A stretch of 734 nucleotides of DNA, taken from NCBI RefSeq assembly GCF_003334405.1, contig NZ_QOWM01000054.1. The stretch is one strand, 5' to 3'. Of the stretch, positions 1-734 are shown piece by piece; position 1 is the stretch's first letter, and the number at the start of each line of letters is the position of its first letter. Under the pieces are notes generated by a model, which searched no databases, had not been told where the DNA came from, and saw only the letters and a program-made list of their open reading frames with translations. The position numbers were made by a program, and so were the translations under genes. This DNA is from Escherichia coli (lineage in GTDB: Bacteria; Pseudomonadota; Gammaproteobacteria; Enterobacterales; Enterobacteriaceae).

Positions 1-734
1 CTCTCCCGCACCTACAGCAGTTACCGGACAAAAACGCCCGCGCCGGTGGGGAGCCTCGGCCCCGGCTGGAAAATGCCTGCGGATATCCGCTTACAGCTGC
101 GCGATAACACACTGATACTCAGTGATAACGGCGGCAGAAGCCTGTATTTTGAGCACCTGTTTCCCGGTGAGGACGGTTACAGCCGCAGCGAGTCACTGTG
201 GCTGGTGCGCGGCGGCGTGGCGAAACTGGATGAAGGTCACCGGCTGGCCGCACTCTGGCAGGCGCTGCCGGAAGAACTCCGCTTAAGTCCGCATCGTTAT
301 CTGGCGACAAACAGTCCGCAGGGGCCGTGGTGGCTGCTCGGTTGGTGTGAGCGGGTGCCGGAAGCGGATGAGGTGCTGCCTGCGCCGCTGCCGCCGTACC
401 GGGTACTGACCGGGCTGGTGGACCGCTTCGGGCGCACACAGACGTTCCACCGCGAAGCCGCCGGTGAATTCAGCGGCGAAATCACCGGCGTGACGGATGG
501 TGCCTGGCGTCACTTCCGGCTGGTACTGACCACGCAGGCGCAGCGGGCAGAAGAAGCCCGGCAGCAGGCCATTTCCGGCGGGACGGAACCGTCCGCTTTT
601 CCTGATACCCTGCCGGGTTACACCGAATATGGCCGGGACAACGGCATCCGTCTGTCTGCCGTGTGGCTGACGCACGACCCGGAATACCCGGAGAATTTAC
701 CTGCCGCGCCGCTGGTGCGCTATGGCTGGACGCC
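1..734 (+). CDS. Partial CDS (both ends outside the window, or start at ATG 73-75), hypothetical protein of unknown function; Trp/Arg/Pro-rich, probably two regions separated by a linker
   Basis: Seen in sequence: frame 1 is open for all 244 codons (my manual translation found no in-frame TAA/TAG/TGA), while + frame 2 stops at TGA 113-115 and + frame 3 at TAA 105-107. Third-position GC is about 74% against about 62% overall. Codon choice is strongly biased (CTG, CCG, GCG, CGC, GGC), with single rare ATA (115-117) and AGA (136-138). Translation from 73: MPADIRLQLRDNTLILSDNGGRSLYFEHLFPGEDGYSRSESLWLVRGGVAKLDEGHRLAALWQALPEELRLSPHRYLATNSPQGPWWLLGWCERVPEADEVLPAPLPPYRVLTGLVDRFGRTQTFHREAAGEFSGEITGVTDGAWRHFRLVLTTQAQRAEEARQQAISGGTEPSAFPDTLPGYTEYGRDNGIRLSAVWLTHDPEYPENLPAAPLVRYGWT... 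Upstream codons 1-72 (LSRTYSSYRTKTPAPVGSLGPGWK) also have high GC3 in the same frame, so the ORF probably continues upstream. No family assignment is possible without a database search. Confidence 0.8.
414..421 (+). other. Chi octamer (5'-GCTGGTGG-3'), a candidate RecBCD recombination hotspot
   Basis: Seen in sequence: exact GCTGGTGG at 414-421 on the + strand, within codons GGG-CTG-GTG-GAC. The reverse complement CCACCAGC does not occur in the window. Established knowledge: this octamer is the Chi sequence recognised by E. coli-type RecBCD approaching from the 3' side. Function here depends on the host having that Chi specificity, which is plausible given the enterobacterial-like codon usage but unproven. 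Confidence 0.4.
459..490. repeat. Perfect 8-bp inverted repeat (CGCCGGTG ... CACCGGCG) with a 16-nt spacer, a potential intragenic stem-loop
   Basis: Seen in sequence: 459-466 CGCCGGTG and 483-490 CACCGGCG are exact reverse complements; the spacer 467-482 (AATTCAGCGGCGAAAT) contains an EcoRI site GAATTC at 466-471. No U/T-run follows, so it is not an intrinsic terminator. One such 8-bp repeat could arise by chance in GC-rich DNA of this length. Confidence 0.25.

Follow-up and report, generated by a model that had tools for sequence, protein, structure and literature searches.

An inverted repeat in the Escherichia coli rhsB/rhsA coding sequence is very probably a by-product of its codons

Results

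The window is a fragment of an RHS core protein gene

The window, by which we mean the whole 734-nt stretch of DNA analysed, is open in frame 1 of the + strand across all of its 734 bases, and + frames 2 and 3 are rich in stops. It is 100% identical over 734 nt to the annotated rhsB and rhsA genes of E. coli K-12, and was found in 3,886 of 5,426 complete E. coli genomes, at a median of three places per genome. The rhsB gene extends over locus positions 5782-10017 of the K-12 record, in which the window begins at 6001; this places the window at codons 74-318, with frame 1 as the rhsB frame. The translated window matches the NCBIfam RHS_core profile NF041261 over profile positions 74-325 (E 3.6e-146), with a score under the full-length cut-off because the window is a fragment, and Pfam DUF6531 matches window residues 1-50. 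As judged by this identity and these profile matches, the window can be assigned to an RHS element core protein gene (rhsA/rhsB, clade I).

1-734, + strand: fragment of the rhs core open reading frame (rhsB/rhsA of E. coli K-12, codons 74-318, frame 1), assigned by identity and profile matches

Under the domain scheme of Jackson et al. (2009; PMC2935791) for clade I Rhs proteins, the window belongs to the 'clade-specific N-terminal domain', which is G+C-rich. G+C content reaches 68% at rhsB gene positions 401-800, which are the richest 400 nt of the gene and contain the hairpin discussed below. The only solved relative found by sequence is Pseudomonas aeruginosa Tse5 (8cp6), which aligns to window residues 10-115; this alignment stops short of the hairpin codons, which specify residues 153-164.

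Two further features of the window were recorded. On the - strand, antisense open reading frames of 106 and 130 aa lie at window 119-439 and 283-675, opposite the rhs frame; long antisense frames are typical of G+C-rich coding sequence, and nothing in the sequence appears to mark either as a gene. A Chi octamer, GCTGGTGG, is located at window 414-421 (+ strand), 38 nt upstream of the hairpin. rhsB carries another Chi site at gene position 2433, likewise on the coding strand. Rhs genes originally came to notice as hot spots of rearrangement.

The inverted repeat forms an imperfect hairpin over a short tandem duplication

The initial annotation of this DNA described a perfect 8-bp inverted repeat with a 16-nt loop inside the open reading frame. 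The repeat itself is real: CGCCGGTG (459-466) is the exact reverse complement of CACCGGCG (483-490), and both lie in the open frame 1. Its size had been underestimated, as the perfect stem is 9 bp long (459-467 with 482-490) and encloses a 14-nt loop. Beyond an A.A mismatch (468/481) there are three further pairs (469-471 with 478-480), giving 12 pairs out of 13 overall and a terminal loop of 6 nt. The hairpin occupies rhsB nucleotides 678-709, codons 226-237 (A-A-G-E-F-S-G-E-I-T-G-V), within the 4,236-nt rhsB open reading frame.

459-467, + strand: 5' arm of the 9-bp stem, CGCCGGTGA, read as gcC GCC GGT GAa (Ala-Ala-Gly-Glu)
482-490, + strand: 3' arm of the 9-bp stem, TCACCGGCG, read as aTC ACC GGC Gtg (Ile-Thr-Gly-Val)
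469-480, + strand: inner extension of the stem, TTC (469-471) paired with GAA (478-480) around the loop AGCGGC (472-477)
459-478, no strand: near-palindrome CGCCGGTGAATTCAGCGGCG, 20 nt, 9 of 10 pairs, centred on the EcoRI site GAATTC (466-471)
463-486, + strand: two tandem 12-nt units, GGTGAATTCAGC (G-E-F-S) and GGCGAAATCACC (G-E-I-T), identical at 9 of 12 positions

These elements overlap one another. The 5' arm has an alternative partner, 467-478, within the 20-nt near-palindrome, in which 18 of the 20 positions are self-complementary. The first tandem unit together with its flanks makes up this near-palindrome, and the reported inverted repeat is the left half of the near-palindrome paired with the corresponding right half in the second unit. 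Folded as RNA, the 32-mer has an energy of -19.0 kcal/mol and the segment 455-494 one of -20.0 kcal/mol; as single-stranded DNA the hairpin reaches -12.7 kcal/mol on the + strand and -13.6 kcal/mol on the - strand. A third copy of CGCCGGTG is found at window 41-48, 434 nt from 483-490, to which it is also complementary; its occurrence is consistent with a common codon string (cGCC GGT G) rather than with a specific signal.

Self-complementarity arises from opposed codons

Both arms follow the codon register of the reading frame, so that whole codons oppose their reverse complements. Opposite GCC (Ala, 460-462) is GGC (Gly, 487-489), opposite GGT (Gly, 463-465) is ACC (Thr, 484-486), and opposite GAa (Glu) is aTC (Ile). 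In rhsB the codons GCC, GGC, ACC, ATC and GAA are each the commonest for their residue, and GGT is the second commonest glycine codon. In this register the third codon position of either arm always pairs with a first codon position of the opposite arm. The stem thus needs particular synonymous codons, and once it has been broken by one synonymous change a second synonymous change cannot repair it.

The hairpin is exceptional at its position and ordinary for the window

The significance of the hairpin depends on the control with which it is compared. When position-matched 40-mers were used, the fold had a z-score of -4.2, with one of 200 dinucleotide shuffles equally good; when codons 457-492 were resampled synonymously from rhsB codon usage, one of 3000 sequences folded as well (p about 3e-4). 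Both values are weak evidence because they are post hoc, the site having been picked as the best hairpin of the window. The fair control is therefore the strongest hairpin at any position of a shuffled window. Against this control, a 36-nt local fold of -20 kcal/mol or lower appears in 58% of synonymous-codon shuffles of the whole window, which keep the protein and its codon usage, and in 54% of dinucleotide shuffles. Perfect stems of 8 bp or more that enclose 3-20 nt are present in 25% of dinucleotide and 16% of synonymous-codon shuffles of the window.

The estimate of the initial annotation, that a repeat of this kind is about what chance would give in a GC-rich window of this size, agrees with these frequencies. 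The comparison it had proposed, of the 71-nt fold of 440-510 with shuffled controls, gave z = -1.40, with 20 of 200 shuffles equally good, and the native fold is no different from its controls. Other local folds in the window reach -17.3 to -18.5 kcal/mol, and a stronger fold (-21.7 kcal/mol) is found at rhsB gene position 1030. The hairpin looks exceptional at its own position; as the best hairpin of the window it is ordinary. A position-matched z-score of -4 is thus compatible with a window-wide probability of more than 50%.

The hairpin matches none of the known stem-loop elements compared

We compared the hairpin with known classes of element that depend on such structures. It is like rho-independent terminators in that its stem-loop is GC-rich and strong enough (-19 to -20 kcal/mol), but it has no T-run on either strand and lies in the middle of a 4.2-kb open reading frame, not at the end of a transcription unit. 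The bases that come next are TGACGGATGG on the + strand and GCTTCGCGGT on the - strand, and a terminator scan of both strands returned no site at the hairpin; an intrinsic terminator was rejected, as the initial annotation had already held. A scan for promoter-like sites found none in the window. The terminator scan did pick out a site inside the open reading frame at window 577-594 (+ strand), composed of a 5-bp GC-rich stem, GGACGGAACCGTCC, followed by GCTTTTCCTG, with two overlapping matches against 0.4 expected in shuffles. This site is weak, lies mid-gene, and is probably incidental.

A role as a frameshift stimulator was likewise rejected. The upstream sequence, CACCGCGAAGC, does not contain an X XXY YYZ motif, and frames 2 and 3 stop in or near the hairpin. 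A scan against Rfam 15, with E values up to 10, returned only matches at chance level, none of which attained half the gathering score of its family; the only one to overlap the hairpin is Erse, with 9 bits against a gathering score of 138.

The hairpin has in common with the REP/BIME elements of E. coli that it is a GC-rich imperfect palindrome. REP/BIME elements are extragenic and exist in hundreds of dispersed copies, whereas the hairpin is intragenic and confined to rhs genes: the 91-nt hairpin region occurs at 1-4 places per genome, and 40 of 40 sampled rows fall in genes annotated as Rhs proteins. Membership of this family fails on both location and copy number.

The stem is not conserved among close homologues

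Homologues were drawn from three sources: the K-12 paralogues rhsA, rhsC and rhsD; 11 loci from species-representative genomes (E. albertii, Pseudocitrobacter, Citrobacter, Phytobacter and two probable E. coli contaminants); and three divergent E. coli rhs genes from plasmid records. The 11 loci come from a single-protein query that reaches close relatives only, in a few enterobacterial genera; more distant Rhs genes, which lie outside this sample, differ in the residues at the hairpin site. Locus L019 (CP044351.1; 54.5% identity, in two pieces) was excluded from the alignments as too divergent or fragmented. The homologues have nucleotide identities of 71-100% across the window.

Several of the records that carry these genes are themselves anomalous. 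Near-identical E. coli rhs sequence is present in an 'Oscillospiraceae bacterium' MAG contig (L002, JAETOQ010000140.1; 99% protein identity) and in a 553-bp 'Rheinheimera sp. A13L' contig (L012, NZ_AFHI01000069.1; 100%), as well as in two small 'Klebsiella oxytoca plasmids' (H91 and H97) with rhsB and rhsD. Contamination or mis-binning is the most likely origin of the E. coli rhs genes in these four records. Several PLSDB 'plasmid' records with rhs (H92-H96) are 0.28-4.8 Mb in length, for example NZ_OL790696.1 with 4,795,340 bp and eight rhs places, and appear to be chromosomes, or pieces of them, that were deposited as plasmids.

In the homologue alignment (A1; 72 columns, 17 sequences, 15 distinct rows), 68.3% of the cells in the named structure are paired, against 68.9 +/- 1.2% when the partners are shuffled. 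Change on both sides is seen in one pair, against 1.6 expected from the shuffles, and the covariation score is 0.088, against 0.093. Six of the 12 pairs depart through unpaired cells only, and the stem is absent from the RNAalifold consensus of the homologue alignment. The arms vary independently among these 17 paralogues and orthologues, mainly by synonymous changes. Maintained pairs and compensatory changes, by which a conserved cis-regulatory RNA structure is recognised, were not found among these sequences. The initial annotation had suggested looking for compensatory changes in orthologues, and the outcome, like that of the folding comparison, is one that it had named as refuting a functional stem.

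The same residues are encoded with the stem lost through synonymous changes in E. albertii (GGT>GGA), Pseudocitrobacter (GCG GCA ... GGG) and the E. coli locus L016 (GCA GGC ... GGG), where the corresponding 32-mers fold with -12.2, -8.0 and -8.2 kcal/mol. The Citrobacter copies fold with -4.6 to -6.5 kcal/mol. Variation is also found within E. coli: the alleles L020 and L021 alter the 5' arm (GCC GCC > GCT GGC, and GGT > GGC), with folds of -13.7 and -9.8 kcal/mol. Both 9-nt arms are unchanged in K-12 rhsD, which is 76% identical over the window. For six codons, at about 0.63 identity each, such retention has a chance of roughly 6%, and rhsB and rhsD share ten further identical runs of at least 14 nt in the window; we do not find it persuasive to read selection from the retention of the arms in rhsD.

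These data bear on the proposal that the hairpin is a functional mRNA structure specific to the E. coli rhsA-D lineage, which slows ribosomes, protects the mRNA or marks it for processing, and which is too young to have left covariation elsewhere. Its local stability far above position-matched controls and the identity of the arms in rhsA, rhsB, rhsC and the divergent rhsD speak for such a structure, but the scan statistic is at chance level, and the sister species E. albertii breaks one pair through a synonymous change. Within E. coli the stem is weakened in L020 and L021, and part of it is missing from alleles with a single 12-nt unit, which occur in at least 263 records, in genes that are annotated as intact. 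Nor is there a slippery heptamer upstream, stops lie nearby in frames 2 and 3, and the hairpin belongs to no Rfam family. We regard this proposal as extremely improbable; the initial annotation's suggestion of a translational pause, an RNA-processing site or a cruciform likewise found no support.

One substitution within the region sets the window apart from its homologues. Window 505-507 in rhsB and rhsA is TGG (Trp, '...DGAWR'), and a glycine codon ('DGAGR') occupies this position in rhsC, rhsD and all other aligned homologues. An exact match to the 91-nt region is present in only 894 of 3,876 E. coli records. Taken with the glycine elsewhere, this suggests that the tryptophan is a minority, derived state.

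The tandem unit varies in copy number within E. coli

Comparison of E. coli rhs alleles revealed forms that have one 12-nt unit in place of two. Alleles L022 and L025 keep GGCGAAATCACC and allele L024 keeps GGCGAATTCAGC; in each, 12 nt of the hairpin region are gone. The existence of two different one-unit forms implies at least two events. The L025-type junction was matched without a difference over 81 nt in 263 E. coli records, a count that refers to this one junction type, as the L024 type is confounded by BLAST splitting full-length alleles into two perfect pieces. The genes of the one-unit alleles, like those of L020 and L021, are still annotated as intact RHS core proteins. Two units are present in all of the other genera and divergent E. 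coli clades sampled, which indicates that the one-unit alleles are the derived state and arose by in-frame deletion.

In E. coli, deletion is stimulated where a palindrome lies between short direct repeats, and the near-palindrome could in principle act at the level of DNA. On this account, a quasi-palindrome hairpin on the lagging-strand template promotes slippage, making the site a hotspot for in-frame 12-nt deletions or template-switch mutations. The two different one-unit alleles at exactly one spot, with at least two events behind them, the exact one-unit junction in 263 records, and a single-stranded DNA hairpin of -12.7 to -13.6 kcal/mol all fit this account. The deletions need no hairpin, however. 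L021 is the two-unit allele nearest to the deleted ones, and it contains a perfect 8-nt direct repeat, GCGGCGAA, in copies 12 nt apart, together with a weak hairpin (-9.8 kcal/mol). As read from these alleles, slippage between the direct repeats would explain the first deletion on its own, and a contribution from the palindrome would not be required.

Template switching at a quasi-palindrome has a signature of its own, namely substitutions that perfect the palindrome, here 481A>T or 468A>T, and neither is present in any E. coli record with the region. Queries carrying either substitution gave no exact match against the 5,426 E. coli genomes, in which some 3,540-3,875 records hold the region; the best identity to either engineered query, 98.9%, corresponds to the native sequence. 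A template-switch hotspot was rejected on this result, there being no perfected palindrome among the E. coli records searched. With these points on both sides, we consider a hairpin that drives mutation at this site very unlikely.

Quasipalindrome and short-direct-repeat slippage sites are known in E. coli, for example the hotspots of lacI and thyA. The rhs site shares with them an imperfect inverted repeat over short direct repeats and natural 12-nt in-frame deletions; it differs in that palindrome-perfecting variants are missing from the population and in that the direct repeats suffice for the deletions. There is a slim chance that the quasi-palindrome over the two 12-nt units is a recurrent in-frame indel hotspot acting through hairpin-assisted slippage, which, if true, would explain the two one-unit alleles at the same position in E. 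coli.

Discussion

Taken as a whole, the evidence indicates that the inverted repeat is very probably a by-product of the coding sequence and has no function of its own. This reading rests on four observations: the chance level of the hairpin in the window-wide scan, the opposed reverse-complement codons in a region of 68% G+C, the failure of the stem to be conserved, and the lack of the accessory signals that go with known hairpin-dependent elements. The arms are in-frame codons that happen to be mutual reverse complements and that are among the commonest for their residues, and they overlie a short tandem duplication encoding GEFS-GEIT. The hairpin can form in the mRNA, where a translating ribosome would be expected to unwind it as it does other local structures.

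The closest likeness is to the incidental mRNA structures of G+C-rich coding sequence. As with these, a GC-rich stem of common codons lies within an open reading frame and is unconserved, its window-scan energy falls within the shuffled range, and nothing sets it apart; the window contains several comparable local folds, and the hairpin is simply the strongest among them. The low interest that the initial annotation attached to the repeat is supported by our results. The stem-loop is genuinely present in the sequence and matters little, being neither a regulatory nor a structural element.

The case nevertheless illustrates how such features come about. In-frame pairs of reverse-complement codons, such as GCC/GGC and GGT/ACC, readily give strong-looking hairpins in G+C-rich genes that are rich in glycine, alanine and threonine. 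One by-product of the analysis is of mild interest: E. coli Rhs toxins naturally differ in the copy number of a four-codon unit in their N-terminal domain.
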